From Leptonemataceae bacterium (GTDB taxonomy: Bacteria; Spirochaetota; Leptospiria; Leptospirales; Leptonemataceae), in contig OZ245742.1 in assembly GCA_965227295.1 (NCBI GenBank), positions 5,472,001 through 5,536,000 of the forward strand: a DNA stretch of 64,000 nucleotides, in the 5' to 3' direction. The translations under genes were made by a program, and so were the position numbers. Below the pieces are notes generated by a model. That model was not told where the DNA came from. It worked only from the letters and a program-made list of their open reading frames with translations, and searched no databases. Positions 5,430-53,668 of the stretch are shown piece after piece. Numbering within the stretch: position 1 is the stretch's first letter; each line of letters opens with the position of its first letter.

Positions 5430-5536
5430 ACTCCGAGGACCGGGGTATCGAGGTGCGACTTGAGAAGATATCGAATCAATCATCATCGCCGTGATGCGTG
5501 CTCGTTACAAGCCTCGGCCTCCTCGGTCCTCGGAGT
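5430..5536. repeat. CCGAGG hairpin element, copy 1 (107 bp)
   Basis: ACTCCGAGGACCGGGGTATCGAGG ... CCTCGGCCTCCTCGGTCCTCGGAGT. Confidence 0.85.
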
Positions 5537-6053
5537 TGGTCTTCTTTTGATTCTTTCGCTAACCTCTCATTGCCACATGACCGACTTCGTAGACTTCGAA
5601 ACCGCCGCCGCCGCGCTCTCGGCTCGCTTCAATGTCGCCGAGATCAGCGCGCCGGAATTTCTCGAACGGCACCAGGGCCGGCCGAACACCGTCCTGATCG
5701 ACGTGCGCACGCCGGAAGAACAGAGCGTGTCGGTCATACCCGGCGCGGTCCTCGCCACCCCGCAAACGAAGCTGAACGCGCTACCGGAAGTTCGGCACGC
5801 GGACGCCGACGCGACGATCGTCGTATACTGCGCCGGCGGCTATCGTTCCGCGCGCTCCATCTCACGGAGCGGCGAGACTATGGCAAAGCACATGGTGAAC
5901 CTGCGCGGCGGCATTGTCGGTTACGCGAACGCCGGCGGAAAGCTGGTGGATGCCCGGGGCGGCACGAGCCACAAGGTGCACGGATACAACAGCACCTGGG
6001 CCCGGTACGTCGAGGCGCCGAACGAGGGCGTCGTAGAACCACCGGTGCCGTAG
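5460..6053 (+). CDS. Rhodanese-like domain protein, possibly a lipoprotein (start uncertain: TTG 5460 or ATG 5577)
   Basis: LIDVRTPEE..SVIPGA, active-site VVYCAGGYRS, NLRGGI. Confidence 0.85.
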   Translation: MRRYRINHHRRDACSLQASASSVLGVGLLLILSLTSHCHMTDFVDFETAAAALSARFNVAEISAPEFLERHQGRPNTVLIDVRTPEEQSVSVIPGAVLATPQTKLNALPEVRHADADATIVVYCAGGYRSARSISRSGETMAKHMVNLRGGIVGYANAGGKLVDARGGTSHKVHGYNSTWARYVEAPNEGVVEPPVP

Positions 6054-6074
6054 GCCGCCATCATCAGGACCACC

Positions 6075-7241
6075 GTGACGAACTTCGATCTCAGCAACGA
6101 ACACTTTCCCATCAAGAACGAGTACATCTTCCTCGCGCACTGCGGCATCTCGGCCCAGTACGCCGGTGCCGACGCGGCCGCGGCGCGCTTCCAGCGCTTC
6201 CATACCGAACGAGCCGCCCTCGTGTTTCGCGAGTACCCGGACGTCCTCGGCGATCTGCGCAACGCCGCGGGTCGACTGCTCCGCACCGACGGCAGCAACG
6301 TTGCCTTCGTCAAAAACACCGCCGAGGGCCTGTCCATGATCGCCAACGGATATCCGTTCGAACCGGGCGATCGCATCGTCAGCTATGTGCACGAATATCC
6401 GTCGAACCACTATCCCTGGAAGATCCAGGAACGACGCGGCGCGGAACTCGTGCTGCTCCCCGACAGCGCGCCGGAAGATACAAAGCCCCGCGGCTTCACG
6501 TACGCGGACGTCGCACGCATCCTGGAGGACGATCGGGTCCGTGTCCTGGCTGTATCGCATGTGCAGTTTACGAGCGGTTACGCCGCCGACCTGAAGCGCC
6601 TGGGCGCGCTCTGCAAAGAACGCGGGGTGGACTTCATCGTGGACGCGGCCCAGAGCCTGGGCGGCCTGCCGCTGTTTCCGGAAGAGCACGGCATCAGCGC
6701 GATCGCCGCGTCCGGCTGGAAGTGGCTCATGGGTCCCATCGGCACGGGCCTCTTGTATACATCGCCGGAGTTGCGCGCAAAGATCGCGCCGACGATGGCC
6801 GGCCCCGAACTCATGCTGCAGGGCGACGACTACCTCGATCACACCTTCGCCCCGCATACGGACGCCCGGCGCTTCGAGTACAGCACCGGTTCGTTGGCGC
6901 TGTCGGTGGGCCTCCACGCCTGCATCAACGATCTGCACAACCGCTTCGGCATCGAGGCAATCCACGCACGCCTCTTAGAATTACAGGAACGCATGTTAGC
7001 GAAACTCGACCGTGAACGCTTTCGTTTCGTGGAGTGGCCCGCCGAAAATCGTTCGGGCATCCTGGCGTGCACGGTCCACGATGCTTCCGGCAAAGAGGAG
7101 GATCCGAACGCCTGCGTACGTCGCGCCCTGGACGCGGGCGTATTTGTTTCGAGTCGCGGCGGTTATCTGCGACTCGCGCCGCACTTCCCGAACAGTGACG
7201 ACGAGATCGACCGCGCGTGCGAAATCATGAACGGGCTGTAG
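6075..7241 (+). CDS. Class V PLP-dependent aminotransferase (cysteine desulfurase/selenocysteine lyase-like)
   Basis: FVKNTAEGL, VDAAQSLG, ASGWKWLMGP (PLP lysine), LRLAPH. Confidence 0.9.
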   Translation: MTNFDLSNEHFPIKNEYIFLAHCGISAQYAGADAAAARFQRFHTERAALVFREYPDVLGDLRNAAGRLLRTDGSNVAFVKNTAEGLSMIANGYPFEPGDRIVSYVHEYPSNHYPWKIQERRGAELVLLPDSAPEDTKPRGFTYADVARILEDDRVRVLAVSHVQFTSGYAADLKRLGALCKERGVDFIVDAAQSLGGLPLFPEEHGISAIAASGWKWLMGPIGTGLLYTSPELRAKIAPTMAGPELMLQGDDYLDHTFAPHTDARRFEYSTGSLALSVGLHACINDLHNRFGIEAIHARLLELQERMLAKLDRERFRFVEWPAENRSGILACTVHDASGKEEDPNACVRRALDAGVFVSSRGGYLRLAPHFPNSDDEIDRACEIMNGL

Positions 7242-7242
7242 C

Positions 7243-8205
7243 TTACGGCAAACCCGCGAGCCCGTGCACCGAAGCGGGGTTCTTGCGCTTGCCGTCCTTG
7301 CGCACTTCGAAATGCAGGTGCGGCCCCGTCGCCCGACCGGTGGCGCCCACCGCCCCGATAACCTGTCCCGGCCGAACCTTAGCGCCTTTACGCACGTCGA
7401 TGCGCGACAGATGACCGTAGTACGTATGATAACCGAAGTCGTGTTCGAGCACGATCAGCTTACCGTAACCGCGCGCATTCTTACTCACGCGCACGACCTT
7501 GCCGCCGCGGCTCGCGTACACCGAGGTTCCCTGCGGCGCCGCAATGTCCACGCCGCCGTGAAAGGTCCGCCGCCGCGTAAACGGATCGATGCGCGTGCCG
7601 AAGCTGCTGGACACACGACCGGTGCGCAACGGCGGCAGGAAACCCTCGCCGCGAAAGTAACGTTCCTCTTCCGGCAGATACTTGCGCCCGGGTAGAAAGT
7701 AACGATCGTCTTCTTCGGTGGGCAGCACGTAAGCCGTGGGGATTTCGTACTGTCGGGCAAGTTTGATGGTGGCCGCATCGCGCTCATCGGAACTGCGCAC
7801 GAACAGACCGCGGGCGTTGGGAATCACCAGCTCCTGGCCGGGCAACAGCGCGTTCGGATTCGCAAGTTCGTTGAGCGACGCCAGGGTATCGGCGTCCTGG
7901 GAAAGCCGCGCCATAATCTCATAAAAATTTTCTTCTTTGCCGACGGTGTAGCGAACGTAGCGCAGCCGGCGACACAGCCGGCCCTCGCGCATGGTACAAC
8001 GCAGGTTGTCGGCGATTTCTTTGCGCAGGCGCTGGAGATCGGCGTTGCCGTGATCCAGCGAGGCCAGCACGGGAATGGCAGATTCCGCCGGCATCGCGCG
8101 TGTGGTTTCAGAGTACGTCGGGCCGCCGAGCAACACGAACAGCACGAAGCCCAGGGCCGGCACCGGCGGACGAACGGAACGGGAACACGCGAACCACAAG
8201 AGCAT
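7243..8205 (-). CDS. LysM + M23 peptidase
   Basis: LysM-like YTVGKEENFYEI...LLPGQELVIP; HGGVD and ATGPHLHFEVR; start moved to MLLWF. Confidence 0.88.
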   Translation of the reverse strand: MLLWFACSRSVRPPVPALGFVLFVLLGGPTYSETTRAMPAESAIPVLASLDHGNADLQRLRKEIADNLRCTMREGRLCRRLRYVRYTVGKEENFYEIMARLSQDADTLASLNELANPNALLPGQELVIPNARGLFVRSSDERDAATIKLARQYEIPTAYVLPTEEDDRYFLPGRKYLPEEERYFRGEGFLPPLRTGRVSSSFGTRIDPFTRRRTFHGGVDIAAPQGTSVYASRGGKVVRVSKNARGYGKLIVLEHDFGYHTYYGHLSRIDVRKGAKVRPGQVIGAVGATGRATGPHLHFEVRKDGKRKNPASVHGLAGLP

Positions 8206-8283
8206 GCTGTTTCTAACATCGAAAAGATTCGCGACGATCCGCGAAAAAAATTTACCGCATCCACGGCTCGTGGATCGTACCGC

Positions 8284-9003
8284 ATGCGCTTCATGCAGAG
8301 TCTGTTGATCCTGGCGGCGGTCCTGCTCGGCTTTCTGTTGATCGAGTCGTTTCAGGCCGTAGCGCAAACCCGCCTCGCCGCAGTCCTCCAGAGCGCCGGC
8401 CTCGATCCGCTGCGTCATCCCCTGGCCGTCTGGGGCGATCGTCTGCGCTACGGCCTGGTGGCCGGCGGCCTCGGCGCGCTGATCTTCCAGGTTCTCCTGC
8501 CGTTTCGCGGCGACACGAATCACCCGCACGCAAACCGCGACGCCTTCTGGCTGCGCGGGAGCGCGGTGGTCGCCCCGGGGTGGGGATTGGCCGGCGGCGT
8601 GCTCTTGTTCGGTATGATGTTTGGAATCGAACGTTTGCTCCAGGGCCTGGGTCTCGCGGCGGTCCCCACCCGGGAAACCCTGGCAGCCGTCTTACGGGAG
8701 GACGCGCAGGTCTTCTTGCTCCACCTGATCGCCTCCGCCGGCTTCACCGCCGTCTTCGAAGAATTCTTTTTCCGCGGCTGCATGCAGAGATACCTCGAAC
8801 GAAACGGCTTCGGTCCTCGTCTGAGCATTGGCTATGTTGCGCTTCTCTTCGTCCTCGTGCATCCCATTGCCGCTGTTCCGGTCCTGCTTCCGGCCGGCCT
8901 GGTCTTCGGCTTTTTCTTCTGGCGTCAGGGACTCCTCCCCGCAATCCTGGCCCACGCGAGCTACAACGCATTGATTCTTACAGCCGTCCGGTACTTCCCC
9001 TGA
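8284..9003 (+). CDS. CPBP family intramembrane glutamic endopeptidase (CAAX/Abi-like)
   Basis: EEFFFRG, F..VH, H..YN motifs and multiple TM segments. Confidence 0.85.
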   Translation: MRFMQSLLILAAVLLGFLLIESFQAVAQTRLAAVLQSAGLDPLRHPLAVWGDRLRYGLVAGGLGALIFQVLLPFRGDTNHPHANRDAFWLRGSAVVAPGWGLAGGVLLFGMMFGIERLLQGLGLAAVPTRETLAAVLREDAQVFLLHLIASAGFTAVFEEFFFRGCMQRYLERNGFGPRLSIGYVALLFVLVHPIAAVPVLLPAGLVFGFFFWRQGLLPAILAHASYNALILTAVRYFP

Positions 9004-9014
9004 CACCTTCATCC

Positions 9015-9743
9015 GTGAGATTTTTCGCCCATTCGATTCTCAGATACACCGTCGCCGCTCTGGCCGCGACGGTCCTCGTGTTTCCCGCAAGCCTGCAGGC
9101 CCAGGTCGCCCACGAATCCGAGCTCACGATTGAGGAGGCGCGCTGGGCCCTCGATCGTTTCCTGTATGGTTTCGATCGCGGCTCCTACTTCAGCGACGAC
9201 GAGACCGAGGGCTTCCACTTTCTCTATAGCTCACATCCACTGTCGGCCTTCGACTACGACATCTACGGAACCACGGTCTCTTCCAGCATCGATCAGACCG
9301 TCATCCGCATCGAAGGCGGCACCGGGGATGCGGAAACCATGGCCCGCGTCCTGGAGTTGGAAGGCTTGCTTACGAAAGGTTCCACTGTGCCGGCCGACGC
9401 CAGCGGCGATCCGGTAGCGCTGAGTGAAAAGTCGCATCTCATCTCCCAATCGCTAAACCTGGCCGCTCCGTGGCTCGGCATCTGGTACAACACCTACAAT
9501 ACGCCGCGACTGAGCCTGGGGCAGACCTGGTTTCGCTTCGGCGCCTACTTTCTTGCGGACGGTCTGTTGCTCTGGGCCGGCGGCACGAAGCTCTGGTCCG
9601 GCAAGTTCGACGCCGGGGAAAACCAGGCCTACATCATCGGAGCGCTGGCCATCCCGCGGGCCGTCGGCGCGCTCCAATCCTTCAACCTGGTGCGCGGTCA
9701 CAACAAGCTCGCCGAACTCAAGTACACGTTTTATCTCGACTGA
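9015..9743 (+). CDS. Hypothetical exported/membrane protein
   Basis: GTG start, signal peptide ending SLQA, C-terminal hydrophobic segments; fits the operon. Confidence 0.65.
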   Translation: MRFFAHSILRYTVAALAATVLVFPASLQAQVAHESELTIEEARWALDRFLYGFDRGSYFSDDETEGFHFLYSSHPLSAFDYDIYGTTVSSSIDQTVIRIEGGTGDAETMARVLELEGLLTKGSTVPADASGDPVALSEKSHLISQSLNLAAPWLGIWYNTYNTPRLSLGQTWFRFGAYFLADGLLLWAGGTKLWSGKFDAGENQAYIIGALAIPRAVGALQSFNLVRGHNKLAELKYTFYLD

Positions 9744-9751
9744 GGCGGACG

Positions 9752-10252
9752 ATGGCCTACCGCTTCTCCACGTATCTCGTCGCGAGCCTGCTGGTGCATG
9801 CCCTCGTGCTCGGAGGCCTGGTGCTCACGGCCGGAGTTCCTACCAGCCTCACCCCGTTCCAGGTGGATGCCCGGGCCGGCTTCGCCGAACTGAATGCCCG
9901 CTTCGTTCCAGGCGTCCGCGGCCGGCAGACGGCCGAGCACGGAGACGGTAACACGGCCGGGTCAAACGCCGGTCAGGCCGCGGCCCGCGCGGGCCTGATC
10001 ACCCGCTCCGTTTCCGAACTCCGGCGGACGATTCCCTACCCCGCCCTCGCCCGGGAAATGAACATGCAGGGCCGACTGGTAATCACGTGCACGATCGATG
10101 CGCGCGGCCGGGTAAGCGCCGCCACGGTGAGCCGTTCCTCGGGACACGACCTCCTCGATCGCACGGCCCTGGAACACGTGCGCACCTGGACCTTTCCCGT
10201 CGGCGAAGATGAGACGAGCTTCGAAATTCCCGTACGTTTTCGACTGGAATGA
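9752..10252 (+). CDS. Energy transducer TonB family protein
   Basis: N-terminal TM SLLVH; C-terminal YPALAREMNMQG...SSGHDLLD..A....W.F..IPVRFRL. Confidence 0.85.
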   Translation: MAYRFSTYLVASLLVHALVLGGLVLTAGVPTSLTPFQVDARAGFAELNARFVPGVRGRQTAEHGDGNTAGSNAGQAAARAGLITRSVSELRRTIPYPALAREMNMQGRLVITCTIDARGRVSAATVSRSSGHDLLDRTALEHVRTWTFPVGEDETSFEIPVRFRLE

Positions 10253-10285
10253 TCGGCGGCCGTGTAAGAGTTCCTACAAATCGCC

Positions 10286-10975: not shown

Positions 10976-11032
10976 ACACGTACAATCGTTTTTGACTTGC
11001 GCTGAGAGGAATCCGGCGGCGATCCTCGGGCA

Positions 11033-12310
11033 ATGAATCAATTCATTCCCCCCGGCTTCAGCCTGCCCCTCGCCTGGACGGCGGATCTCATGCTGCCGCT
11101 CATTTTGAAGGGCGTTCAGAACATCGACGAAGTCGTCGTGCGTCCCGAGGACAAACGCATGCTGCGCAATCTGCGCAAGGATCGCCTGCTTTTTTTTACG
11201 AATCATCCGACGACCGCCGAACCGCCCATCACCTGGCACCTGGGCAATCTCATGGGCGCGCGCTTTCAGTTCATGGCTTCGCGCCAGGTCTTCGACTGGA
11301 ACTGGGGCATCGTGGGCCGCGTAATTTCGAACCTGGGCGCCTACTCGGTCATCGCCGGCATCAACGACCGCGAAGCCTTTAAGACCACGCGCCAGGCCCT
11401 GGCGAAACCGGAAGGCAAGCTGGTACTGTATCCGGAGGGCGAACCCACCAGCGGCGAGAACGATTCGCTCATGCCGTTCCAGCCCGGCGTCGCCCAGCTT
11501 TCATTCTGGGCCCTCGACGATGCCCGCAAAGTCGATCCGAAGGCGGACATCACCATCCTGCCGGGATTCATTAAGTACATCGTGCAGGGGACGGACGCGG
11601 AAATCCGCGATCAATTAGACCAGAGCCTGCGCAAACTGGAGAAACATCTCGGCATCGATCCGGGCGACAAGAATCTCCTGCGCCGGTTCTTAACAGTCGG
11701 TCGCGTGTTGTTAGAAGAAGCCGAGGGCGAGTACAGGATTCCGCGGGCTTCGGACCAGGACTTCGATTACCGCATCGGCCGACTGCGACACGCCATCCTG
11801 GACAACGTCGCCGAAAAAATCAACGCCCAGGGCTACGATCCCAAAGCCGACGCCATCATCAAGCTCCGCCAGCTTTTCGCCGTAGTGGAGATGATCATGA
11901 TCGACTACCCGGATCCGAAAGTTCCGAAGCTGAATGATCAGGAAAAAGAGTGGGCGCACAAGGAACTTTTGAAGGCCTTCGACTTCATCGTCATCAAACG
12001 CGAGTCTCTGGTATCGCGTCCCACGCCCGAACGTTTCTACGAATGGCTGGCCCGCTTCGAAAGCTACGCCTACGATAAGACACCCCGGGCCCTGGGCGGG
12101 GAGCCGTCCCCGGTCCCGCGCAAGGCTTACGTAAGCTTTGCCAGGCCGTTTAATTTAAGCGAGTACTGGCATCCCACGGACAAGGCTGCCCGCAAAAAGG
12201 GTGTCGAGAAAATGCTGAAACGCGTACGGGACGATATGCAGGGCCTCCTGGACGAGGCCCTGAACCTCAGCCAACCGCTGGTGAAACCGTACGACATCGG
12301 TGAGGAGTAA
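11033..12310 (+). CDS. Glycerolipid acyltransferase (PlsC-like)
   Basis: NHPTTAEP (HX4D-like) and LYPEG motifs. Confidence 0.82.
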   Translation: MNQFIPPGFSLPLAWTADLMLPLILKGVQNIDEVVVRPEDKRMLRNLRKDRLLFFTNHPTTAEPPITWHLGNLMGARFQFMASRQVFDWNWGIVGRVISNLGAYSVIAGINDREAFKTTRQALAKPEGKLVLYPEGEPTSGENDSLMPFQPGVAQLSFWALDDARKVDPKADITILPGFIKYIVQGTDAEIRDQLDQSLRKLEKHLGIDPGDKNLLRRFLTVGRVLLEEAEGEYRIPRASDQDFDYRIGRLRHAILDNVAEKINAQGYDPKADAIIKLRQLFAVVEMIMIDYPDPKVPKLNDQEKEWAHKELLKAFDFIVIKRESLVSRPTPERFYEWLARFESYAYDKTPRALGGEPSPVPRKAYVSFARPFNLSEYWHPTDKAARKKGVEKMLKRVRDDMQGLLDEALNLSQPLVKPYDIGEE

Positions 12311-12321
12311 AAGAGTTTCTT

Positions 12322-12434
12322 ACACCGAGGACCGAGGTACCGAGAATCAAATCCACAGAGCGCTCGTAGCCCGCATGCGTTCAGACTACGAACGCCTCCC
12401 CAAACATACTCGGGCCCTTCTCGGTCCTCGGAGT
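12322..12434. repeat. CCGAGG hairpin element, copy 2 (113 bp)
   Basis: ACACCGAGGACCGAGGTACCGAG ... CTCGGTCCTCGGAGT; inner TCGTAG/CTACGA stem. Confidence 0.85.
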
Positions 12435-12447
12435 CAATTCCTGCTGC

Positions 12448-13536
12448 TTATGCCGCAGCCTTCGCCTCGGCGTAGCTCAGCCACCGCCCCTCTTTCGCGT
12501 CAAAGAGTTTGCACATCTTCGTGCTTCGCAGGTAGTCCCGGAAGACCGTGCCGCGGCGTTCGATCACGTAATCGCCGTAAACGGACTTAATATCTTCCAG
12601 CGCCTTCGGTAGATGATAAAACGGAATGCGCACCTGCACGTGATGAGGCATGTGCACGTAAATGTTGTGTAAAAAGAAGTTAGCGAACGGATTCAGGTGA
12701 TAGTTCACCGTGCCGAAGAGCTGGCCGTAGGCCGGCGTCCACTCGCGGTGTCTCTTCCACGGGATGGTCTCGTGGATGTGATGCACGTAGACCGTGAAAC
12801 CCATGAAGTAGTTCCAGGCAATGAACGGCATGAGGCACATCTTCGCCCACATCCAGAAGCCGCCGGTATAGAACGCGGCGGCGCTAATGCCGACGGCAAA
12901 CAGCATCACGAGTACACGATCGCGGTTTACACCCTTCGCCGGCGCATTGTAGAGATACATGCTCTTTAGCCAGATCTCGATTAAGTAATAGGGACCGGCC
13001 CCCAGGGGCGACCAGTACAGACGGTGCATCATTTTACCGAACCAGGACTTACGCCGGTACTGCGCCGGGGAGACCGGACGCCATACGAAGTCGCCTTCGA
13101 GTTTGATCGTGTGACCGTGATGAATGCGATTGTGGCCGTAGACCCAGGCGCTGTAAGCATGCAGGCTCGGCAGCATGGCGATCTGGCCCACCCAGTACGC
13201 GAGCGTCTTGTTCTTAAATAGAGCGCCATGGGCGGCGTCGTGACCGACAATGAACAGCCCGCTGATGGCGAAGCCCGTGAGAACCCACAGAGGCAGGACA
13301 TAGTACCACGCGTCGACAAAATAGAGCGTCGTAAAGATCGCCGCGGTAACGATGAGATCCCGGGCGAAATAGACCAGGCCGAGCCAGGTCGGATTATCGT
13401 AGGCCTCCGGGGAAATCGTATCCCGGATGGATTTCCAGGTCAGGCGCTGCCCGGTGAAGCGTTCCGCCCGTTCGTCGTGGCGCTCTTCGGGATCGGCTGC
13501 GGCCTCCCGTGGTCTTGTAAGCGTCGCTTGCGTCAT
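12448..13536 (-). CDS. Membrane fatty acid desaturase (delta-12/omega-3-like)
   Basis: His boxes HDAAH, HNRIHH, HMPHH; GGAGG RBS before MTQATL. Confidence 0.92.
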   Translation of the reverse strand: MTQATLTRPREAAADPEERHDERAERFTGQRLTWKSIRDTISPEAYDNPTWLGLVYFARDLIVTAAIFTTLYFVDAWYYVLPLWVLTGFAISGLFIVGHDAAHGALFKNKTLAYWVGQIAMLPSLHAYSAWVYGHNRIHHGHTIKLEGDFVWRPVSPAQYRRKSWFGKMMHRLYWSPLGAGPYYLIEIWLKSMYLYNAPAKGVNRDRVLVMLFAVGISAAAFYTGGFWMWAKMCLMPFIAWNYFMGFTVYVHHIHETIPWKRHREWTPAYGQLFGTVNYHLNPFANFFLHNIYVHMPHHVQVRIPFYHLPKALEDIKSVYGDYVIERRGTVFRDYLRSTKMCKLFDAKEGRWLSYAEAKAAA

Positions 13537-13627
13537 GAAGATTCCTCCGTTGGGGCTGCTGTGCCCCGCGGCCCTGTTTTCGCCGCTTTCAGCCATTTCT
13601 GATGCACTGCAAAAATCTGTCAATCGG

Positions 13628-13657
13628 AACTAACGCCGTTAGTTAAGTGACTTAATT
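13628..13657. promoter_or_regulatory. Two abutting palindromes upstream of the desaturase (candidate operators)
   Basis: AACTAACG-C-CGTTAGTT (13628-13644) and TTAAGT-G-ACTTAA (13643-13655). Confidence 0.5.
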
Positions 13658-17387: not shown

Positions 17388-18098
17388 ATGAACGACAACA
17401 GATCACAGGGCCAGGGAAGCCGCCGCTTTGCCGCGGCGTGTGTTGTTGCCGGCCTGTGTCTGCTTCTATTGGCCTGCCCCGGCCGTACCCGGAACCTCGA
17501 AGATCGCTCCCTGACCCGCAAGGATCTAACGGAGTTCGGGGCATCCCTCGTCTTTCCCTCGGACTGGGTGGTCAAGCGCGGGGAGTTCTTTCATCTGGAA
17601 GCGCGCTCCTCCGACGAGAATGAACCCCGGGCCCTCTTTGAATATCGCGGGCTGGAAAAGGTCAAGAAGGGACGCGAGAGCCGGCGTCAGTACGCGGCCG
17701 GCTGGTACCGCGCCATTGCCCTTTCGTACGAAGGCTGGGAGTACGAATCCCGGAGCACCGACCCGGCCGACCCGGAAGGCACCTGGCGTTTCGAAGGCGT
17801 TTATTTAGAAGAAACTCCGGGAAGCGACGGCCCTGTGCTCCTGCGTAAGATCGGATTATTGCGCTTTCGCGGCGAACGCGTGCACGCCCTCTATTATACC
17901 GCGCTCGCTTCGGACTTTGACGCCGTGCGCCCGCTATTCGAGAAAATGGATAGTCTGCACCGCTACTTTGATCCGGTGGACCTGGCCATGATGGAGGCTT
18001 CTTCGCGTTATTTGGTTGTCACCGGGCCTGATCGCAGCACTCCTGACAATCGAGCCGAACGTCTCCTTGAATTCGCGTCGGCATACGAGCGCCTATAG
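17388..18098 (+). CDS. Hypothetical lipoprotein
   Basis: Hydrophobic stretch ending LLLAC (lipobox-like); stop codon lies inside the tRNA gene. Confidence 0.65.
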   Translation: MNDNRSQGQGSRRFAAACVVAGLCLLLLACPGRTRNLEDRSLTRKDLTEFGASLVFPSDWVVKRGEFFHLEARSSDENEPRALFEYRGLEKVKKGRESRRQYAAGWYRAIALSYEGWEYESRSTDPADPEGTWRFEGVYLEETPGSDGPVLLRKIGLLRFRGERVHALYYTALASDFDAVRPLFEKMDSLHRYFDPVDLAMMEASSRYLVVTGPDRSTPDNRAERLLEFASAYERL

Positions 18099-18160
18099 CT
18101 CAATGGATAGAGCGCAGGTCTCCGGAACCTGAAATCGGGGTTCGAATCCCTGTAGGCGCA
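18089..18160 (+). tRNA. tRNA-Arg (anticodon CCG)
   Basis: GCGCCTA/TAGGCGC acceptor stem, TAGCTCAATGGATAGAGC D-arm, CAGGT-CTCCGGA-ACCTG anticodon arm, GGTTCGAATCC T-arm; CCA not encoded. Confidence 0.96.
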
Positions 18161-30399: not shown

Positions 30400-30565
30400 G
30401 ACTCCGAGGACCGAGGTTCCGAGGGAAGAGTTGGGAGAGGGATTGGAATCGTGAGAGTCGGTTACGTATGTATGGATGATTCAAAATTAGATCATCCATA
30501 GCCCGTAAACGACCGGACCACGAAAACCCTCCCTTCTTCCCCTCGGTACCTCGGTCCTCGGAGTC
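30400..30565. repeat. CCGAGG hairpin element, copy 3 (166 bp)
   Basis: GACTCCGAGGACCGAGGTTCCGAGGG ... CCCTCGGTACCTCGGTCCTCGGAGTC; inner TATGGATGAT/ATCATCCATA stem. Confidence 0.92.
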
Positions 30566-32595: not shown

Positions 32596-32596
32596 G

Positions 32597-34788: not shown

Positions 34789-34955
34789 ACTCCGAGGACC
34801 GAGACACCGAGGGAAAGATGGGAGAGTTGTCGGGCGAAAGCAAGATGGTTCAGTATGATGGAATCATTTATAAAGAATAAACCATCCGTAACTCACAAAC
34901 GTTCATTATACGATTACCCTCACAATCTTCCCCTCGGCACCTCGGCCCTCGGAGT
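34789..34955. repeat. CCGAGG hairpin element, copy 4 (167 bp)
   Basis: ACTCCGAGGACCGAGACACCGAGGG ... CCCTCGGCACCTCGGCCCTCGGAGT; inner GATGGTT/AACCATC. Confidence 0.9.
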
Positions 34956-37368: not shown

Positions 37369-37556
37369 AGATTTACACCGAGGCTCCGAGGCGCCGAGGA
37401 TTTTGGGGAGGGTCATCGCAGGGGAGACGCGCGAAGGTAATTCGTGGTTAATCTTATTTTAGTTTAATCTAATGCAATATCAATTGCAGAACAGCGTAAA
37501 TCCCACCGCGACTCTCCCCGTCTTCCCTCGGCGCCTCGGAGCCTCGGTGTAAATCT
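37369..37556. repeat. CCGAGG hairpin element, copy 5 (188 bp, perfect 31-bp terminal inverted repeat)
   Basis: AGATTTACACCGAGGCTCCGAGGCGCCGAGG ... CCTCGGCGCCTCGGAGCCTCGGTGTAAATCT. Confidence 0.93.
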
Positions 37557-43695: not shown

Positions 43696-45051
43696 ATGGC
43701 AGAAGAAGTTAAGGTTCCAGAATTAGGCGAAAACATCGATAAGGCCGAGGTGGCCCAGGTCCTGGTGGCGAAGGGCGACTCCGTCACCGCGGAACAGCCG
43801 CTCATCGAAGTCGAAAGCGACAAGGCCTCCGTGGAAATCCCGGCCCCCTTCGCCGGCACCGTAGCCGACATTCGCGTGAAAACCGGGCAGACGATCAAGA
43901 TCGGCCAGGTCATCCTCACCCTCGATAAAGAAGGCGAAGGCCGGGCGGCGAAATCCGAGGACTCCGACGACAGCGACAGCGCCGCGGAACAAGAGCCCGC
44001 CCAGGCCGGCAAAAAAGAATCGAAGTCCGAAGCGCCGCAGCCCGAGAAGTCCCCGGAAGAACGCGCAAAGGAAGCCGCACAGAAGTACGACGTCTCCGAT
44101 CGCGTCGGCAAGGTATCGAAGCCGGACCTGGGCGATCCCGCCCCGGCGGCGCCGTCGGTGCGGCGTTTCGCCCGGGAACTGGGTGTGGACGTACAACGCC
44201 TGAAAGACCAGGGCAGCGGCCCCGGCGGTAGAATTACTTTTGATGATATTAAGGGATTCGTAAAAAACGTCGTGCAGCGCCGGGACGGCGGCGGAGGCGT
44301 AAGCGGGCCCGCACCGGCCGCGATGGAACTGCCGGACTTCGAACAGTACGGCAACGTGCGCCGCGAGCACATGAGCGGCATTCGTCGTAAGATCGGCGAG
44401 AAGATGTCCATGTCCTGGACGACGATTCCCCACGTCACGCAGTTCGACGAGGCGGACATCACGGCCCTGGAAGAGTTTCGCAAAGCAAAGGCCAAAATCG
44501 CCGAAAAGCGCGGCGCCAAACTTACGGTCACCGCCATCTTACTGAAAGTCCTCGCCGAGGCTCTGAAACGCTTCCCGCAATTCAACGCCAGCCTGGATCT
44601 ACGCAACGACGAGATCATTTACAAAGAGTACATTCACATCGGCGTCGCCGTGGATACGGACCGCGGCCTGCTCGTGCCCGTCCTCCGGGACGTGGATACG
44701 AAGAGCGTCATCGACCTGGCGCTGGAGTTGAACGACGTCGCCGGGCGGGCCCGGGATCGCAAGACGAAGCCCGACGAACTCCAGGGCGGCAACATCTCGC
44801 TCACGAACCTGGGCGGCCTCGGTACGACGCACTTCACGCCCATCATCAACTGGCCCGACGTCGCCGTGCTCGGGGTGGGCCGCGCTAAGATTCAGCCGGT
44901 GTATTCTAAGGAAAGCGGCGAATTCGAGCCGCGGCAGATCATGCCGCTGTCGATTTCGTACGACCACCGCATCATAGACGGCGCCGACGCGGCCAGGTTC
45001 TTGAGGTGGATCTGCGAGGTGCTGGAACAGCCGCTGACGATGTTATTATAA
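43696..45051 (+). CDS. aceF: Dihydrolipoamide acetyltransferase (E2) with one lipoyl domain
   Basis: VESDKASVEIP lipoyl-Lys, AAPSVRRFARELGV E3-binding motif, DHRIIDG. Confidence 0.93.
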   Translation: MAEEVKVPELGENIDKAEVAQVLVAKGDSVTAEQPLIEVESDKASVEIPAPFAGTVADIRVKTGQTIKIGQVILTLDKEGEGRAAKSEDSDDSDSAAEQEPAQAGKKESKSEAPQPEKSPEERAKEAAQKYDVSDRVGKVSKPDLGDPAPAAPSVRRFARELGVDVQRLKDQGSGPGGRITFDDIKGFVKNVVQRRDGGGGVSGPAPAAMELPDFEQYGNVRREHMSGIRRKIGEKMSMSWTTIPHVTQFDEADITALEEFRKAKAKIAEKRGAKLTVTAILLKVLAEALKRFPQFNASLDLRNDEIIYKEYIHIGVAVDTDRGLLVPVLRDVDTKSVIDLALELNDVAGRARDRKTKPDELQGGNISLTNLGGLGTTHFTPIINWPDVAVLGVGRAKIQPVYSKESGEFEPRQIMPLSISYDHRIIDGADAARFLRWICEVLEQPLTMLL

Positions 45052-45057: not shown

Positions 45058-45224
45058 ACTCCGAGGACCGAGGGAACGAGGTGTTTTGGGAGGGTCTTCG
45101 CAGGACAAACGTCGTCGGGCTATGAGCTGCAATTTATTCAATATAGACAAGACGGACATAGCTCAACAATCCTCATTTTACAATCCCTCTCCCATCTTAT
45201 TCTCGGCCCCTCGGTCCTCGGTGT
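45058..45224. repeat. CCGAGG hairpin element, copy 6 (167 bp), inside the PDH operon
   Basis: ACTCCGAGGACCGAGGGAACGAGG ... CTCGGCCCCTCGGTCCTCGGTGT; inner TGAGCT/AGCTCA. Confidence 0.9.
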
Positions 45225-45248: not shown

Positions 45249-46664
45249 ATGAGTAACAAAACACAGGTAGTAGTCATCGGCGGCGGGCCGGGAGGTTATG
45301 CCGCGGCCTTTCTTGCGGCGGATCTCGGCCTCGACGTCACCCTTGTCGAAAAACGCGAGAATCCCGGCGGGGTGTGTCTCTATGAAGGCTGCATCCCGTC
45401 GAAGGCATACCTTCACATCGCGAAGGTCATCGGCGAGGCGAAACACGTGGCCGACTTCGGCATTTCCTTCGGCGAACCGAAGATCGACGTCGATAAACTG
45501 CGCGCGTTCAAAGAGGACGTCGTAAAAAAACTTACCGGCGGCACCGGCCAGCTCGGCAAACGCCGCGGCGTCAAACATCTGCGCGGCACGGCGAAGTTTC
45601 AGAACGCGCACACGCTGAGCATCAGCACCCACGAGGGCGACGAAGAGAGCCTGGAGTTCGAGCATGCCGTCATCGCCACGGGTTCGTTGCCCACGCGCAT
45701 TCCCGGCATGCCGGACGACGAGCGCATCATGGACAGCACCGGCGCCCTCGCCTTAAAAGACGTTCCGAAGAAGTTACTGGTCGTCGGCGGCGGCTACATC
45801 GGTCTGGAAATGACCACGGTGTATGCAAGCCTGGGCTCCGAGGTTACCGTCGTGGAGATGGCGGACTCCCTCATGGCCGGCACCGACGCCGACCTCGTGA
45901 AACCCCTGGCGTCGCGCCTGGAAGAGATCACCGAAGAAATCCTGCTCAACACGAAAGTCTCATCGGCAAAGATCGACGGCAACGGCGTGCGCGTTAACTT
46001 AGATGGACCGAACATTAAGAATCCCGAGCGTGTCTTCGATCGCGTGCTGGTCAGCGCCGGGCGCAAACCCGTCACCGACGGCCTGGGCCTCGAAAACACG
46101 GCGGTGCGCGTGGGCGAACACGGTTTCATTCACACGGACGAACAGATGCGCACCACCGAGCGGCACATCTTCGCCATCGGCGACGTGGCGGGCCAGCCCA
46201 TGCTCGCGCACAAAGCGTCGCATGAAGGTCGCACCGCCGTCGAGGTGATCGCCGGTCATAAGGCCGCGTTCGAACCGTACGCCATCCCGGCGGTGGTGTT
46301 TACCGATCCGGAGATCGCCTACTGCGGTCTCACTGAAAATCGTGCGAAAGAGATCGGCAAAGAAGTGCAGGTCGCGAAGTTTCCCTGGGCCGCCTCCGGG
46401 CGTGCGCTGACCCTGGGCCGCAGCGACGGCATGACGAAACTCATCATCGATCCGGAGACGGAGCGTGTGCTCGGCGCGGGCATTGTCGGCCCCGGCGCGG
46501 GCGAGTTGATTGCGGAGTGCGTGCTCGCCGTGGAGATGGGTGCGCTCGCGAAGGACATCGCGCTATCGATTCACCCGCACCCGACGTTAAGCGAAACGGT
46601 CATGGAATCGGCGGAGGTGTTCTTCGGTTTGTCGACGCATGTGTATAAGCCGAAGCGGGGGTGA
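45249..46664 (+). CDS. lpdA: Dihydrolipoamide dehydrogenase (E3)
   Basis: IGGGPGGY, GGVCLYEGCIPSK, GGGYIGLE, HPHPTLSE. Confidence 0.97.
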   Translation: MSNKTQVVVIGGGPGGYAAAFLAADLGLDVTLVEKRENPGGVCLYEGCIPSKAYLHIAKVIGEAKHVADFGISFGEPKIDVDKLRAFKEDVVKKLTGGTGQLGKRRGVKHLRGTAKFQNAHTLSISTHEGDEESLEFEHAVIATGSLPTRIPGMPDDERIMDSTGALALKDVPKKLLVVGGGYIGLEMTTVYASLGSEVTVVEMADSLMAGTDADLVKPLASRLEEITEEILLNTKVSSAKIDGNGVRVNLDGPNIKNPERVFDRVLVSAGRKPVTDGLGLENTAVRVGEHGFIHTDEQMRTTERHIFAIGDVAGQPMLAHKASHEGRTAVEVIAGHKAAFEPYAIPAVVFTDPEIAYCGLTENRAKEIGKEVQVAKFPWAASGRALTLGRSDGMTKLIIDPETERVLGAGIVGPGAGELIAECVLAVEMGALAKDIALSIHPHPTLSETVMESAEVFFGLSTHVYKPKRG

Positions 46665-46775
46665 GATTTCACCCAGGGCCTACAACGAAGCCGAACAGCC
46701 GCTATTTTCGAAGACCCCGAAATTTGATTGATTGTCTGAAGCGGATTGTCTGAATGCCTCCCCCGGGCAATCCGC

Positions 46776-48508: not shown

Positions 48509-48602
48509 CTCTCTAACCCTCGCTCAATTGGTATATCGCGCCTATAATCCCGGCGCTTCCGGCCTCGGCAAGCAACCGCTTACGCCTCGGTGGTTCGTAT
48601 CT

Positions 48603-49259: not shown

Positions 49260-49262
49260 AGC

Positions 49263-49862
49263 TTACTCCGCTCGTTCCAGAGGCACGTTGCGCTCGTAGT
49301 CCCAGTTGTCCGGCAGCGCGTCGGGGGAGTACTCCCCGTCCGTAAAGTAACCGCGCACGAACGTGCCCGTCCACTTGCGGTCGTCCGGCGCCACTAAGGT
49401 ACCCTCGCCATGCATTAAGTTATCTTTCCAGTAGCCGTCGTACTCGAAGCCGTCGGCGAACTTCATGTTCCCGAGACCGTGTCGTTGCCCGTTCACGAAT
49501 TCGCCCTGATAAACACCGCCGTTCGCAAAACGATAGATGCCCGGCCCCGAGATCACGCCGTCGCGCCATTCGCCCTCGTAGACGTCGCCGTTGGCAAAGG
49601 TACACGTACCGTCGCCGTGCAGTTGGCCGTCCTTCCACTCGCCTTCGCAGGTGGTGCCGGTGAGATAGATCATCGCGCCGCGGCCGTTCGGGGCCTGGTT
49701 CGCAAACGCGCCGGCGTAGCGCCCGCCGCCCTTCCAGACGTAAACGCCCTCGCCGTTCTCACAATCGCCTTCGAGGCAGCCGACGGTTTTCTGCGAAGCA
49801 GTGCAGGCCCAGGCAAGCAGTAAGATGAAAACTCCGGCAAAGATACGGAGGAATGATCCCAT
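49263..49862 (-). CDS. MORN-repeat lipoprotein
   Basis: Lipobox AWAC; repeated Y.G.W.dG...G.G units. Confidence 0.88.
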   Translation of the reverse strand: MGSFLRIFAGVFILLLAWACTASQKTVGCLEGDCENGEGVYVWKGGGRYAGAFANQAPNGRGAMIYLTGTTCEGEWKDGQLHGDGTCTFANGDVYEGEWRDGVISGPGIYRFANGGVYQGEFVNGQRHGLGNMKFADGFEYDGYWKDNLMHGEGTLVAPDDRKWTGTFVRGYFTDGEYSPDALPDNWDYERNVPLERAE

Positions 49863-49973
49863 AAACGAAGAATTCGCGAAGCGCCCGGGCGTGCAAGCAG
49901 AGAACGCCGCGTACATGCGAAACCGCCGGCGCCATGAGTGACACCCGCGGTTCGTTGGAATTCCGGCGGCGAG

Positions 49974-50171
49974 TTAGCCGGCCTTCTGTAAGTCTACCGG
50001 CTGGTTTTTATCATTGGCGAACGTGCACCGGCCTTCACCGTGAAGTTGACCGTTCCGCCACTGCCCCTCGCACACGGAGTTCGAAGCGAAGATCATTTTA
50101 CCGGAACCGTTGGGAACGCCGGTTTTCAAACTGCCCTCCTGCGATGTGATTCGCGTACCGGAGAGAAGCAA
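49974..50171 (-). pseudogene. MORN-repeat gene fragment (partial paralogue of the adjacent gene)
   Basis: PNGSGKMIF...CEGQWRNGQLHGEGRCTFAN matches the neighbour's PNGRGAMIY...CEGEWKDGQLHGDGTCTFAN. Confidence 0.65.
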
Positions 50172-50186
50172 CGATGCACGGCAGCG

Positions 50187-51221
50187 TCAAGGGCGCGCCG
50201 GAATGCTTAAGTTCTGCCCGCGGATGATTAGATTCGGATTCGCCACGAGACCGCGGTTCGCTTCATAGATGCGGCGCCAGTGGCGGTCGTCTCCGTAGGC
50301 ACGGCGGCTGAGGCTGTAAAGCGTGTCCCCGTCCTGCACGGCGTAGCTGCTGCCCGGCTGGATGGACGATTCACTCGCCGGCATGGCGTCGGAAGCAGAT
50401 TCGCCCGGCGACGTGCCGTCCGCGACGACATCCGACGCTGTCGCTTCGTCCGCCGCCGCTTCATTGTCCGCCGGCGCGTCGTCGCTGGCGGTCGGCTCAG
50501 TCGCGCTTTCGCTCGTTTGCGCATCGTCTTCCATGCGATCCGCGTCGTCCCCGTTACCGCAGCCGCGAAAGAGAAAGTAGATCATCACGAGCATTAGAAT
50601 TACAAAGAGAACCGCGAACAGGATGCGCAGCCAGCGCGGGCCGCCGACGCCTTCGCCGGTATTCGCCGGCGGTGAAGAGACGGACTGCGCCGCCATGCCG
50701 GTAGTCGGTGCCGGTCCGGGCGCCTGCTCCGGAGCAGGCGTCGCCGCTGCCGGTGCGGCCGCGGGAGTGCTGAGCGCGCCGTAGGCCTCGCGCAGAATCT
50801 CCTGGGCCCAGCGCGCGTGTTTCATTTTCGCAAAGTTCCGCACCGACTTCACGCCGAGTTCGCGCATGCGCTCTTCGTCGGCCTCGCTCACGCCCTGGAG
50901 CACCGAGATGGGCAGGTCCAGCAGCGACTTGATGGGCGTCGCCTCGTACTGTTTGATGAGCTTGTCCTCAAAGCCGTGCATGTCGATTTTCGACTGCGGC
51001 ACCTTTTCCAGGGCCAGGATCTCCTGGGCCCAGAGGATGTACTTGAGGTCGGCAAGATCGCGGACCGTCCTTACGTAGAACGATTCGTACAGCAACTCCG
51101 CGGCGCGATCGCCGACGCCCTTCAGCACCGTGATGGGCGACTCGGGCAGATCGTTGAGCGGGATGTTGCGATGCGCCTTCACGACGCGTTGATTCAGGAA
51201 TGTTTCTCGTTTTGTGGCCAT
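50187..51221 (-). CDS. Membrane-anchored LysM protein with two N-terminal HhH-like repeats
   Basis: Two ~65-aa repeats (PITVLKGVG...WAQEIL / PISVLQGVS...WAQEIL), one TM, C-terminal LysM YAVQDGDTL...WRRIYEANR..NPNLI. Confidence 0.85.
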   Translation of the reverse strand: MATKRETFLNQRVVKAHRNIPLNDLPESPITVLKGVGDRAAELLYESFYVRTVRDLADLKYILWAQEILALEKVPQSKIDMHGFEDKLIKQYEATPIKSLLDLPISVLQGVSEADEERMRELGVKSVRNFAKMKHARWAQEILREAYGALSTPAAAPAAATPAPEQAPGPAPTTGMAAQSVSSPPANTGEGVGGPRWLRILFAVLFVILMLVMIYFLFRGCGNGDDADRMEDDAQTSESATEPTASDDAPADNEAAADEATASDVVADGTSPGESASDAMPASESSIQPGSSYAVQDGDTLYSLSRRAYGDDRHWRRIYEANRGLVANPNLIIRGQNLSIPARP

Positions 51222-51504
51222 AGGTTCTGTTCAGTAAATGTTTATCCGCTGCTACTGCGGGCGGCGAGGTCTTCGATGAGATCGTGGATTTCATACCGGA
51301 CCGGCCGGCATCCCCTGCTCCAGGCCGCCCGCCCATCATCCTGTGGCATTCCCAACCCACCGCAACCCTTTTTCCCTGCCTCCACCTGATTCCATGCGCT
51401 CTTTTTCTAAGCTGTCGCCGAAAAACTGGACAGCATCACACGATCGTCATCCTCCTGGCCGTGCTCGCAATTCTTCGCTATACTTAAAAGATAAGGACTC
51501 CCTC

Positions 51505-53475
51505 ATGCCATCATCACAACCACTCAACGTCGCACAAAAATTGATCCACTCCCATCTCGTCGACGGCGAAATGCAACCGGGCCGTGAGATCGGTATTCGC
51601 ATCGATCAAACGCTGACGCAGGACGCCACCGGCACACTCGTAATGCTCGAACTGGAGGCCATGGGCGTGGATCGCGTGCAAACCGAGCTGTCCGTCCAGT
51701 ATGTCGATCACAATCTCCTGCAGACCGACTACAAGAACGCCGACGACCACGTCTTTCTAAAGTCCGCGTGCGAAAAATTCGGTGTGTGGTACTCACGACC
51801 CGGCAACGGCGTGAGCCATCCCGTGCATCAGGAACGTTTCGGCAAACCCGGCAAGACCCTCGTGGGTTCGGACTCGCACACGCCGGCGGCGGGAGCGCTG
51901 GGCATGCTCGCCCTCGGCGCCGGCGGGCTCGACGTCGCCTTCGCCATGGCCGGCAAACCGCTCTACTTCAAGATGCCCGAGATCCTCGGCGTAAAACTCA
52001 CCGGTAAGCTGCCCGATTGGGTCAGCGCCAAAGACGTCATCCTGGAAATGTTGCGTCGTTACGACGTAAAGGGCTGCGTCGGTAAGATCGTCGAATACTA
52101 CGGGCCGGGCCTCGCGTCGTTGAGCGCCATGGACCGCCACGTCATTGCGAACATGGGCACGGAGCTCGGCGCGACGACGACGGTCTTTCCCGCGGACGAC
52201 GAAGTGCGTCGATTCTTAAAGTCCCAGGAGCGCGAGGATGATTATACCGAACTGCTCGCCGACGAGGGCGCACAGTACGACGCGAACGACGAGATCGATC
52301 TATCGCAACTGGTACCGCTCATCGCGAAGCCCGGCAGTCCCGGGGACGTCGTTAAGGTACGCGAAGTAGAAGGTAAGGACGTCCACCAGGTGGTCGTCGG
52401 TTCGTCGGCGAACCCCGGTCTGCGCGACTTCTGGACCCTGGCGAAGATCATGAAGGACGAGGCCGCCGATCCCCGGGTATCCTTCGACGTGAATCCGACG
52501 TCGCGCCAGGTCATCGAGAATCTTACAAATGACGGCGCCTTCCAGGAATTGATCCACTCCGGCGCCCGCTTTCACCAGGCCGGTTGTCTGGGCTGCATCG
52601 GCATGGGTCAGGCGCCCGCGTCGAATAAGATCAGCCTGCGCACCATGCCGCGCAACTTTCCCGGCCGCTCCGGCACGCTGGACGACCAGGTCTATCTCTG
52701 CTCGCCGGAAACCGCGGCCGCCGCGGCCCTCACCGGCAAAATCACCGACCCGCGCGACATCGAAGCACGCTTCGGCAAAACATATCCGCGCTACGAGTAC
52801 CCGAACAAAGAAATCATCAATCGCAAGCACCTGATCGCGCCGCCGGAAAGCGGAGACACGAAACTCGTGAAGGGACCGAACGTAAAGTCCCTCCCGGACT
52901 TCACAGACCTGCAGGACGAGTACGAATTTCCGGTGCTCCTCAAAATGAAAGACAACATCTCCACCGACGAAATTCTGCGCGCCGGGGCCGAGGTGCTGCC
53001 GCTCCGTTCGAACATCCCCGAGATCAGCAAGTGGTCGTTCTACATCGTCGACCGCGACTTCTACGATCGTGCGCGCGCGACGCAGGACGAACACGGCGGC
53101 CACTTCGTCGTCGCCGGCGAAAACTACGCCCAGGGATCGTCCCGCGAACACGCCGCCATCGCCCCGCGTTATCTCGGCCAGGTCGCCGTGATTGCGAAGA
53201 GCTACGCCCGCATCGGCTGGCAGAACCTGGTGAACTTCGGCATCGTACCGCTGGAGTTCGTGAACGACGGCGACTACGATCGCATCGAACAAAACGACAT
53301 CCTGCGCCTGGAAGAGCTGCGCGCGAGCATCCGGGACGGCAAACCGGTGCGCGTTCGTAACATCACGAAAGATGAAGTTTACGAAACAAAGACGGACCTC
53401 AGCGAACGCCAGCGCGAGGTCGTCCTGGCGGGGGGCGTCATCAATCTCTACCGCAAAGAAACCGCCGCGGCTTGA
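51505..53475 (+). CDS. Aconitate hydratase (short bacterial type)
   Basis: TQDATGT, YVDHN, GSDSHT, GCLGCIGMG, RNFPGRSG, STDEI, NYAQGSSREHAA; the first cluster Cys position reads GSSAN. Confidence 0.9.
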   Translation: MPSSQPLNVAQKLIHSHLVDGEMQPGREIGIRIDQTLTQDATGTLVMLELEAMGVDRVQTELSVQYVDHNLLQTDYKNADDHVFLKSACEKFGVWYSRPGNGVSHPVHQERFGKPGKTLVGSDSHTPAAGALGMLALGAGGLDVAFAMAGKPLYFKMPEILGVKLTGKLPDWVSAKDVILEMLRRYDVKGCVGKIVEYYGPGLASLSAMDRHVIANMGTELGATTTVFPADDEVRRFLKSQEREDDYTELLADEGAQYDANDEIDLSQLVPLIAKPGSPGDVVKVREVEGKDVHQVVVGSSANPGLRDFWTLAKIMKDEAADPRVSFDVNPTSRQVIENLTNDGAFQELIHSGARFHQAGCLGCIGMGQAPASNKISLRTMPRNFPGRSGTLDDQVYLCSPETAAAAALTGKITDPRDIEARFGKTYPRYEYPNKEIINRKHLIAPPESGDTKLVKGPNVKSLPDFTDLQDEYEFPVLLKMKDNISTDEILRAGAEVLPLRSNIPEISKWSFYIVDRDFYDRARATQDEHGGHFVVAGENYAQGSSREHAAIAPRYLGQVAVIAKSYARIGWQNLVNFGIVPLEFVNDGDYDRIEQNDILRLEELRASIRDGKPVRVRNITKDEVYETKTDLSERQREVVLAGGVINLYRKETAAA

Positions 53476-53492
53476 GTTCGGGAGACGGGATT

Positions 53493-53668
53493 GACTCCGA
53501 GGACCGAGGTACCGAGAGAAGAATGTGGAGGCGGGTTTGACTTGCGTGCGAGCAGGCTATGAAAGCTGTCTTAAGCATTGAGAAAATTAAAATTCATTAG
53601 CTTTGCCTGTCCGCATTCACACCAGGCAGGCTCTCCCAAAAACCCTCGGCCCCTCGGCCCTCGGAGTC
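53493..53668. repeat. CCGAGG hairpin element, copy 7 (176 bp)
   Basis: GACTCCGAGGACCGAGGTACCGAG ... CCTCGGCCCCTCGGCCCTCGGAGTC; inner CAGGC..AAAGCT/AGCTTTGCCTG. Confidence 0.9.

Follow-up and report, generated by a model that had tools for sequence, protein, structure and literature searches.

Hairpin repeats with tandem-unit arms in a Leptonemataceae genome are probably gene-less copies of a GxxExxY hairpin cassette

We analysed a 64,000-nucleotide stretch of the genome of a Leptonemataceae bacterium (GenBank assembly GCA_965227295.1, contig OZ245742.1, positions 5,472,001 to 5,536,000; hereafter the window), in which seven hairpin elements with arms built of short tandem units lie between ordinary genes. 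These elements are probably gene-less, non-autonomous, REPIN-like copies of a palindromic selfish element, here called the GxxExxY hairpin cassette, whose gene-bearing form encodes a GxxExxY protein with a predicted PD-(D/E)XK nuclease fold. The genome holding the window (G000) is one 5.94-Mb contig with a G+C content of 59.8%, and G001 and G002 denote two genomes of the same genus. The seven elements, with adjacent open reading frames (ORFs) in window coordinates, are as follows.

5430..5536: gene-less hairpin of about 107 nt with a slightly degenerate left arm, CCGAGGACCGGGG; ORF 4532..5422 ends 7 nt before it.
12322..12434: gene-less hairpin of the ~105-nt class between convergent genes; the stop of ORF 11033..12310 lies 11 nt upstream and that of ORF 12448..13623 (minus strand) 13 nt downstream.
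30400..30565: gene-less hairpin of the ~165-nt class, with same-strand EamA transporter and MscS-type channel genes (Pfam) on either side.
34789..34955: gene-less hairpin of the ~165-nt class, 11 nt past the stop of a gene with an adenylate/guanylate cyclase domain (Pfam).
37369..37556: copy with variant arms, ACACCGAGGCTCCGAGGCGCCGAGG, between convergent genes; its perfect 31-nt inverted repeat takes in 6 flank bases (AGATTT).
45058..45224: gene-less hairpin within a 2-oxoacid dehydrogenase operon, between E2 acyltransferase and E3 dihydrolipoamide dehydrogenase genes (Pfam; ORFs 43696..45051 and 45249..46664).
53493..53668: gene-less hairpin between convergent aconitase and zinc alcohol dehydrogenase genes (Pfam).

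An earlier note on this DNA, made from the letters alone, had described these seven hairpins and had stated that each starts shortly after a stop codon. All seven were found at the places it gave, 6-18 nt past a stop. The arm pattern CCGAGGACCGAGG, with at most one mismatch, matched the window 13 times against 0.14 expected, and none of 100 shuffles got to 13. Twelve of these matches form six inverted pairs, located at six of the seven places; at the seventh, 37369-37556, the variant arms are 31 nt long and 100% complementary. The thirteenth match (55760-55772) is without a partner and lies inside ORF 54352..56298, and we therefore regard it as a chance occurrence. The predicted RNA fold of 30400-30565 has an energy of -98.4 kcal/mol (z -11.3), and that of 12322-12434 one of -44.9 kcal/mol (z -4.6). 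A search of the whole window against Rfam at gathering thresholds returned a tRNA at 18089-18160 as its sole match and none at the elements.

A search with an arm profile extended the family to the whole of G000. It yielded 302 arm matches, comprising 119 complete hairpins (forward and reverse arms less than 400 nt apart) and 64 unpaired arms. Five of the complete elements are shorter than 60 nt, four measure 60-94 nt, 45 measure 95-118 nt, 44 measure 119-149 nt, and 21 measure 150-199 nt. The 16-mer ACTCCGAGGACCGAGG alone occurs 76 times in forward and 82 times in reverse orientation (control 0). Read inwards, an arm opens with a weak purine box plus a T-run, goes on with (N)CCGAGG units, three in tandem, and ends in a linker followed by a GGGAGAG box; in the ~105-nt class the arm ACTCCGAGGACCGAGGnaCCGAG is followed by a GAAGA-like or T-run linker, the GGGAGAG box and a palindromic core, and then by the mirror image. 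The element ends read ACTCCGAGG and CCTCGGAGT, with positions 0-8 conserved at 87-99%. Two linker subtypes, often one of each per element, had been proposed from the window, and the genome bears this out: 46 of the 119 complete elements pair one GAAGA-like with one T-run linker, the others having GAAGA on both arms (28), T-runs on both (3) or unclassified/mixed linkers (42). The proposal that the cores share little sequence between copies did not hold, since the ~105-nt class has a palindromic core consensus and the cores of the ~165-nt class can be aligned too. Compared pairwise, copies are on average 93% identical over the two outer units, 71-75% over the third and 54% over the core.

Several smaller groups were seen beside these classes. 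Sub-families with ACCACCGAGGCnCCGAGGnCACCGAGG and ACACCGAGGCTCCGAGGCGCCGAGG arms, whose units are intermediate between CCGAGG and CACAGAGG, are exemplified by G000:C1:1707488-1707593, 3602525-3602630 and 3953421-3953527 and by the window element 37369-37556; no gene-bearing copy of their own was seen in G000. Mini-hairpins of 50-63 nt, nearly arms alone, occur at G000:C1:126214-126266, 320593-320643, 4802061-4802111 and similar sites, and look like internal-deletion products of longer copies.

When lone arms were paired over distances of up to 6 kb, only one forward-reverse pair emerged, at G000:C1:1864366-1864965, outside the window. This 600-bp copy has the same arms, linker and GGGAGAG box as the gene-less copies and encloses a 147-aa ORF that matches PF13366 (E 2.8e-42) and TIGR04256, "GxxExxY protein" (E 2e-44). 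Dozens of gene-less copies resemble it over the outermost ~60 nt on each side, and its interior matches nothing else in G000 save for a second match at positions 181-260. It lies about 10 nt past the upstream stop, with its gene on the same strand as the neighbours. The earlier note had named GxxExxY-type nuclease genes as a candidate mobiliser, and this lead was well founded: the sole cargo-bearing copy of the family in G000 carries a GxxExxY PD-(D/E)XK gene.

G000 contains exactly two such genes. The second (978919-979284) encodes a protein 45-47% identical to the first, and its locus (G000:C1:978888-979340), 8 nt past a stop, is likewise bracketed by inverted arms, here of three 8-nt units, GCCACAGAGGCACAGAGGACACGGAG. 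Arms of this GCCACAGAGGCACAGAGGACACGGAG/CACAGAGG type occur 18 times forward and 16 times reverse in the genome, two of the 34 being those at the gene itself. A GxxExxY gene bracketed by tandem-unit inverted arms is thus found at two G000 loci, and dispersed gene-less hairpins with the same arms are found for the CCGAGG, CACAGAGG and, as described below, CACGGAT types. A tblastn search of G000 for pseudogene remnants returned the two intact genes only, the next match having an E value of 0.48. No REP-associated tyrosine transposase (RAYT/Y1, PF01797) was detected in G000 (completeness 93.55%) at E <= 0.01 by a search that was positive in 6 of 14 control genomes, and the intervening-sequence (IVS) protein PF05635 gave no match in G000.

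The GxxExxY family is very large: 7,976 of 8,000 scored candidates fell at E <= 1e-10, with a best non-self match to the G000 protein of 66% identity. A published account lists GxxExxY/PF13366 as a large family with its function given as "Unknown" (PMC3424549). In 32 aligned sequences, G44, E49 and Y52 of the name motif and D89, E99 and K101, a PD-(D/E)XK-type triad, are invariant; the invariance of these putative catalytic residues indicates that the protein is under selection. The AlphaFold2 model had a predicted local distance difference test score (pLDDT) of 83.6, with residues 1-21 disordered. No entry of the Protein Data Bank (PDB) matched by sequence at E <= 1, and Foldseek found no PDB match at E <= 0.001, its weak matches all being nucleases of the PD-(D/E)XK fold. 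Alignment with VIA-align gave Z values of 7.7-6.0 for BpuSI, the restriction-endonuclease-like structure 3ijm, Cas4 SSO0001, BglII, CinB and Hjc. Given these middling Z values, the assignment to the PD-(D/E)XK fold rests mainly on Pfam and the motif.

We then compared arms and genes among relatives. The 16-mer ACTCCGAGGACCGAGG was absent from all 40 relatives searched, and the pattern CCGAGG-N(1-2)-CCGAGG, found 145+167 times (312) in G000, occurs 1+0 times in each of G001 and G002. G001 has a different amplified unit: CACGGAT unit pairs number 71+77 (148) in this genome, 0 in G000 and 4+5 in G002, and the sole GxxExxY gene of G001 adjoins an array of CACGGAT-unit hairpins. At this locus (L117, G001:C2:2144889-2148233), at least seven CACGGAT-arm hairpins, repeating every 113 nt or so, stand head to tail at locus positions of about 700-1490, immediately next to the gene's 3' end. 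Arm types and GxxExxY genes thus occur in matched pairs in three cases, two in G000 and one in G001, and arm types go with the nuclease gene of the genome that holds them and vary from one species of the genus to another. This amounts to a natural experiment within the genus, with three nuclease genes and three arm alphabets, in which arm copy number tracks the type found at the gene.

Across the order, 21 of 81 genomes had a GxxExxY gene. It stands between inverted arms at no fewer than 17 of the 28 assessable loci (a count that leaves out 2 at contig ends), and about 13 of these have visibly tandem-unit arms. Eight of the 11 genomes with at least five CACRGAG unit pairs contain the gene, against 13 of the 70 others (odds ratio 11.7, Fisher p 6e-4), an association that is overstated because related genomes are not independent and no correction for relatedness was applied.

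The placement of the elements was assessed against gene calls from a crude ORF filter (4,525 calls over 86% of the genome). By these calls, 109 of the 119 elements are intergenic and the other 10 lie inside an ORF call; the intergenic ones are found between same-strand (69), convergent (25) and divergent (15) neighbours, divergent spacers being under-used for their share of intergenic bases (chi-square p 0.005). The stop-side distance is -1 to 21 nt in 104 of the 119 elements and 5 to 21 nt in 88. Between same-strand genes, where copies are often inside operons, the median distance is 11 nt to the upstream stop (interquartile range 9-17) and 21 nt to the next start, and the stop is the nearer of the two for 51 of these 69 elements (p 9e-5). 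C is scarce in both flanks, which have a purine box (-12..-7) and then a T-run (-6..-2), and the stop codon is followed by AGA or GAA in 25 of 106 cases, compared with 4% genome-wide. A flank of this kind adjoins the other arm families and falls within the perfect inverted repeat of the variant copy in the window; the element therefore probably extends about 12 nt beyond ACT and includes the purine/T-run flank.

In agreement with the earlier note, no target-site duplication was apparent in the family at boundary offsets 0-15: a single exact direct repeat of 4 nt was counted where 0.42 would be expected, and there was none of 5 nt or longer. The same-genus genomes do not fix the element ends, since identity over the matched gene segments is only 68-76% and the sequence at the single syntenic spacer compared is unrelated: at the position of 34789..34955 both carry a spacer of other sequence, about 210-230 nt long, that lacks the element. 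Two familiar kinds of site were considered and set aside. An intrinsic (Rho-independent) terminator does not fit, because the T-run lies 5' of each arm and a transcript of either strand would read U-run, hairpin, A-run, the reverse layout. Integron attC sites do not fit either, as the copies are dispersed chromosome-wide rather than in a cassette array and end in ACTCCGAGG; no integrase search was made.

The earlier note had further suggested that the family conserves structure rather than core sequence and that it may be a structured RNA of 3' untranslated regions. The first suggestion was refuted and the second was not supported. As RNAalifold on a MAFFT alignment recovered outer arm pairs only, we used explicit column pairing and chimera folding. 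Over 18 core pairs in 42 aligned copies, Watson-Crick pairing was 54.9% within an element and 57.0% when partners were shuffled between elements, with 1923 of 2000 shuffles reaching the observed value. In an alignment-free comparison with DNA folding parameters, native and chimeric cores folded at -7.3 and -7.5 kcal/mol in the 105-nt class, -7.8 and -8.1 kcal/mol in the 120-145-nt class, and -14.9 and -13.9 kcal/mol in the 165-nt class (p 0.07). The lack of core covariation and the equal folding of chimeras indicate that the palindrome is inherited and decaying, not kept by compensatory change. There was no G-U enrichment on the sense strand either: mismatches compatible with G-U pairing numbered 206 on the sense transcript and 238 on the antisense (14 and 30 in the outer arms). 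Orientation relative to transcription, judged from linker asymmetry, was the same in 16 elements and opposite in 7, which is not significant. Nothing points to selection on one RNA strand.

Among known systems, the closest parallels are with REPINs, doublets of repetitive extragenic palindromic (REP) sequences associated with a single-copy RAYT (Bertels and Rainey 2011, PMC3116915), in which the REP end is described as carrying a GTAG (or CGTC) tag (PMC3733652). Like them, our elements are short non-autonomous palindromes, repeated between genes tens to hundreds of times, with two inverted units that form a hairpin (119 pairs, of which 109 are intergenic). In both, a small associated gene, present once or twice, lies between repeats of the kind it goes with, repeat and gene match in a lineage-specific way, and there is no target-site duplication. 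Our elements differ in that the associated protein has the PD-(D/E)XK fold (GxxExxY) and is not an HUH/Y1 transposase, of which none was found in G000; in that each arm comprises three tandem 7-9-nt units in place of a single REP; and in the lack of a GTAG tag and the position of the elements, a median of 11 nt from stops. MITEs (miniature inverted-repeat transposable elements) of DDE insertion sequences also share terminal inverted repeats, non-coding character, high copy number and derivation by internal deletion from a longer gene-bearing form. Unlike MITEs, the family shows no target-site duplication and has arms of tandem units, and the gene in its sole longer form encodes a nuclease fold instead of a DDE transposase. 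The earlier note's classification as a REPIN/MITE-like mobile family therefore stands as far as it concerns dispersed, lineage-specific elements with inverted arms and without GTAG end, RAYT or target-site duplication; its structure-over-sequence part does not.

Two further systems share single features with the family. The IVSs of 23S rRNA in Coxiella and Leptospira have terminal inverted repeats and an S23p ORF and are excised by RNase III (PMC4990558). They resemble our elements in a long terminal-inverted-repeat stem with an optional small ORF in the loop, and in being regarded as selfish, with unclear mobility, and tolerated inside transcripts (PMC4990558). The present elements differ, being found between protein genes, in more than 100 copies and with GxxExxY rather than S23p/PF05635 as cargo. 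The single large-subunit rRNA gene of G000 (2823700-2826614) measures 2915 nt against a 2925-position model and has no arm match inside; without an insert there, the family is not an IVS in the strict sense. The heptamer repeats GGGAATC and GGGGAYT, described in Xanthomonas and Nostoc (Rehm et al. 2015, PMC4692102), are likewise tandem 7-nt units forming inverted pairs near stops, with a different unit sequence. In Xanthomonas, 70-75 sites have two convergent arrays as inverted repeats, and the repeats are enriched between same-direction ORFs, within 50 bp of stops and sometimes overlapping the stop; the authors, who read them as forming G-quadruplexes, with four as the favoured number of units, link them to no mobile element and mention no nuclease gene (PMC4692102). 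A literature search, which did not extend to supplements or ISfinder, found no link of GxxExxY to repeats; no Leptospira repeat family of this kind was among the matches listed, and PMC4692102 was the only relevant paper found on heptamer/octamer repeats.

These findings lead us to favour the interpretation stated at the outset, that the window elements are probably gene-less, non-autonomous copies of a selfish GxxExxY hairpin cassette. On this interpretation the nuclease would read the tandem units as an address and would mobilise its own cassette and, in trans, the gene-less copies. After insertion, the arms would stay conserved because only copies with intact arms could be copied again, and the palindromic core would decay freely. 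The gradient of conservation from arm to core fits selection on being recognised and copied.

A number of points weigh against this interpretation. Nucleases of the PD-(D/E)XK type cut DNA but do not join ends, and thus a nuclease alone does not explain copying; the structural matches have middling Z values, nuclease activity is a prediction from sequence and model, and the gene may be cargo rather than mobiliser. The conservation of the arms could equally reflect a host protein that binds them. The hairpin array of G001 flanks its gene on a single side, no arms are detectable at the GxxExxY gene of G002, and a GxxExxY gene was not found in three of the 11 genomes with abundant CACRGAG arms. 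Distances to starts are rough, being derived from the crude ORF filter. No transposition event, empty site or strain polymorphism was seen in the material compared, namely two distant same-genus genomes and contigs of the source organism.

Some of these points are what would be expected if the hairpin were mobile or duplicative through something else, for instance replication or repair by the host at palindromes or a further factor, with GxxExxY as no more than a passenger, or as a module for addiction or homing, lodged in one copy's loop, much as the S23p ORF sits in the 23S IVS. We consider this unlikely. The arm-rich genomes without a GxxExxY match and the armless gene of G002 agree with it; so does the G001 array, which looks like a local tandem duplication, and the spread of element sizes, about 50 to about 190 nt, points to palindromes undergoing slippage and internal deletion. 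However, three independent matches between amplified arms and the arms at a gene are hard to obtain by chance, the catalytic residues are invariant in the 32 homologs, and at the majority of the loci surveyed in the order the gene lies between arms.

Still less probable, in our judgement, are structures selected by the host and kept in place, whether as RNase III sites, as stabilisers of operon mRNA or as sites for a host DNA-binding protein. The very regular placement behind stops, with many copies inside operons, the high stability of the hairpins and the contrast between arms conserved at 93% and cores down to 54% would all be accommodated, and heptamer inverted pairs near stops are described as mostly conserved between two Xanthomonas species (PMC4692102). 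Yet the cores show no compensatory change, G-U mismatches are not in excess over A-C on the sense strand, the orientation bias is not significant, and on both strands the order U-run, hairpin, A-run is the reverse of an intrinsic terminator. The absence of the family from both same-genus genomes, one of which has a different amplified unit, fits a parasite better. We regard as very improbable an ordinary MITE of a DDE insertion sequence, or a RAYT-mobilised REPIN, with a parent gene that was lost or escaped detection. The inverted arms at the ends, the many copies and the location between genes would suit either, and REPINs too lack a target-site duplication; most DDE elements, in contrast, make one, and there is neither a GTAG end nor a PF01797 match in G000. 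The GxxExxY copy is, moreover, the only longer repeat bounded by CCGAGG arms, in a genome for which no dedicated whole-genome DDE scan was run.

Beyond the cassette of G000, we advance tentatively, and with somewhat less than even confidence, that GxxExxY proteins are the enzymes of an undescribed, phylum-spanning class of mobile DNA. Such a class would use arrays of 7-9-nt units as a changeable address and would spread its own cassette together with swarms of gene-less hairpins, without target duplication and just behind stop codons, as a third solution beside DDE-type MITEs and HUH-type REPINs. A large family annotated without function, GxxExxY/PF13366, would thereby gain a possible role. 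If the nuclease does mobilise the arms, it would represent a new enzyme class for bacterial non-autonomous repeats, a small protein (about 125 aa) with a target seemingly set by short tandem units, and the scattered reports of heptamer/octamer inverted repeats near stops would be explained. For annotation, well over 100 intergenic sites, many of them within operons, hold a parasite-like repeat rather than regulatory RNA.

We also searched more widely for the arms. Contigs of the source organism from two sequencing runs of one study break at arms, their apparent skips carry the cores of other copies, and no empty site was seen in them. A scan of a genome collection, which may not cover the window's own genome, found the 16-mer at no fewer than 78 loci elsewhere, all single and none of 78 with an inverted partner within 400 nt, which we attribute to chance. 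Among metagenome contigs, the 21-base arm pattern matched three, none resembling G000, and two of these are apparently chance matches in coding DNA. One metagenome contig (L131, Ga0190265_10331643) from an unrelated organism carries at 88-135 a lone array of six (G)CCGAGG-type units, with no inverted partner within the 1.6 kb examined. Neither collection scan yielded a close relative of G000.

Other repeats were observed in G000 in the course of this work. A repeat of about 1.2 kb, present in about six copies and possibly an insertion sequence, lies at G000:C1:4312967-4314173, 68 nt from a lone CCGAGG arm (outer end 4314241) that has no partner. An unrelated repeat, with a unit of about 331 bp, is dispersed over dozens of loci as short tandem arrays, with 78-89% mutual identity and none in the window; examples are G000:C1:5264012-5265395, 2836411-2837565 and 4198861-4200263. 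Finally, segments of 12-23 kb near both contig ends (1-12567, 29553-42428, 5896415-5910816 and 5915634-5938550) match elsewhere in the genome and may represent duplications or assembly overlap.

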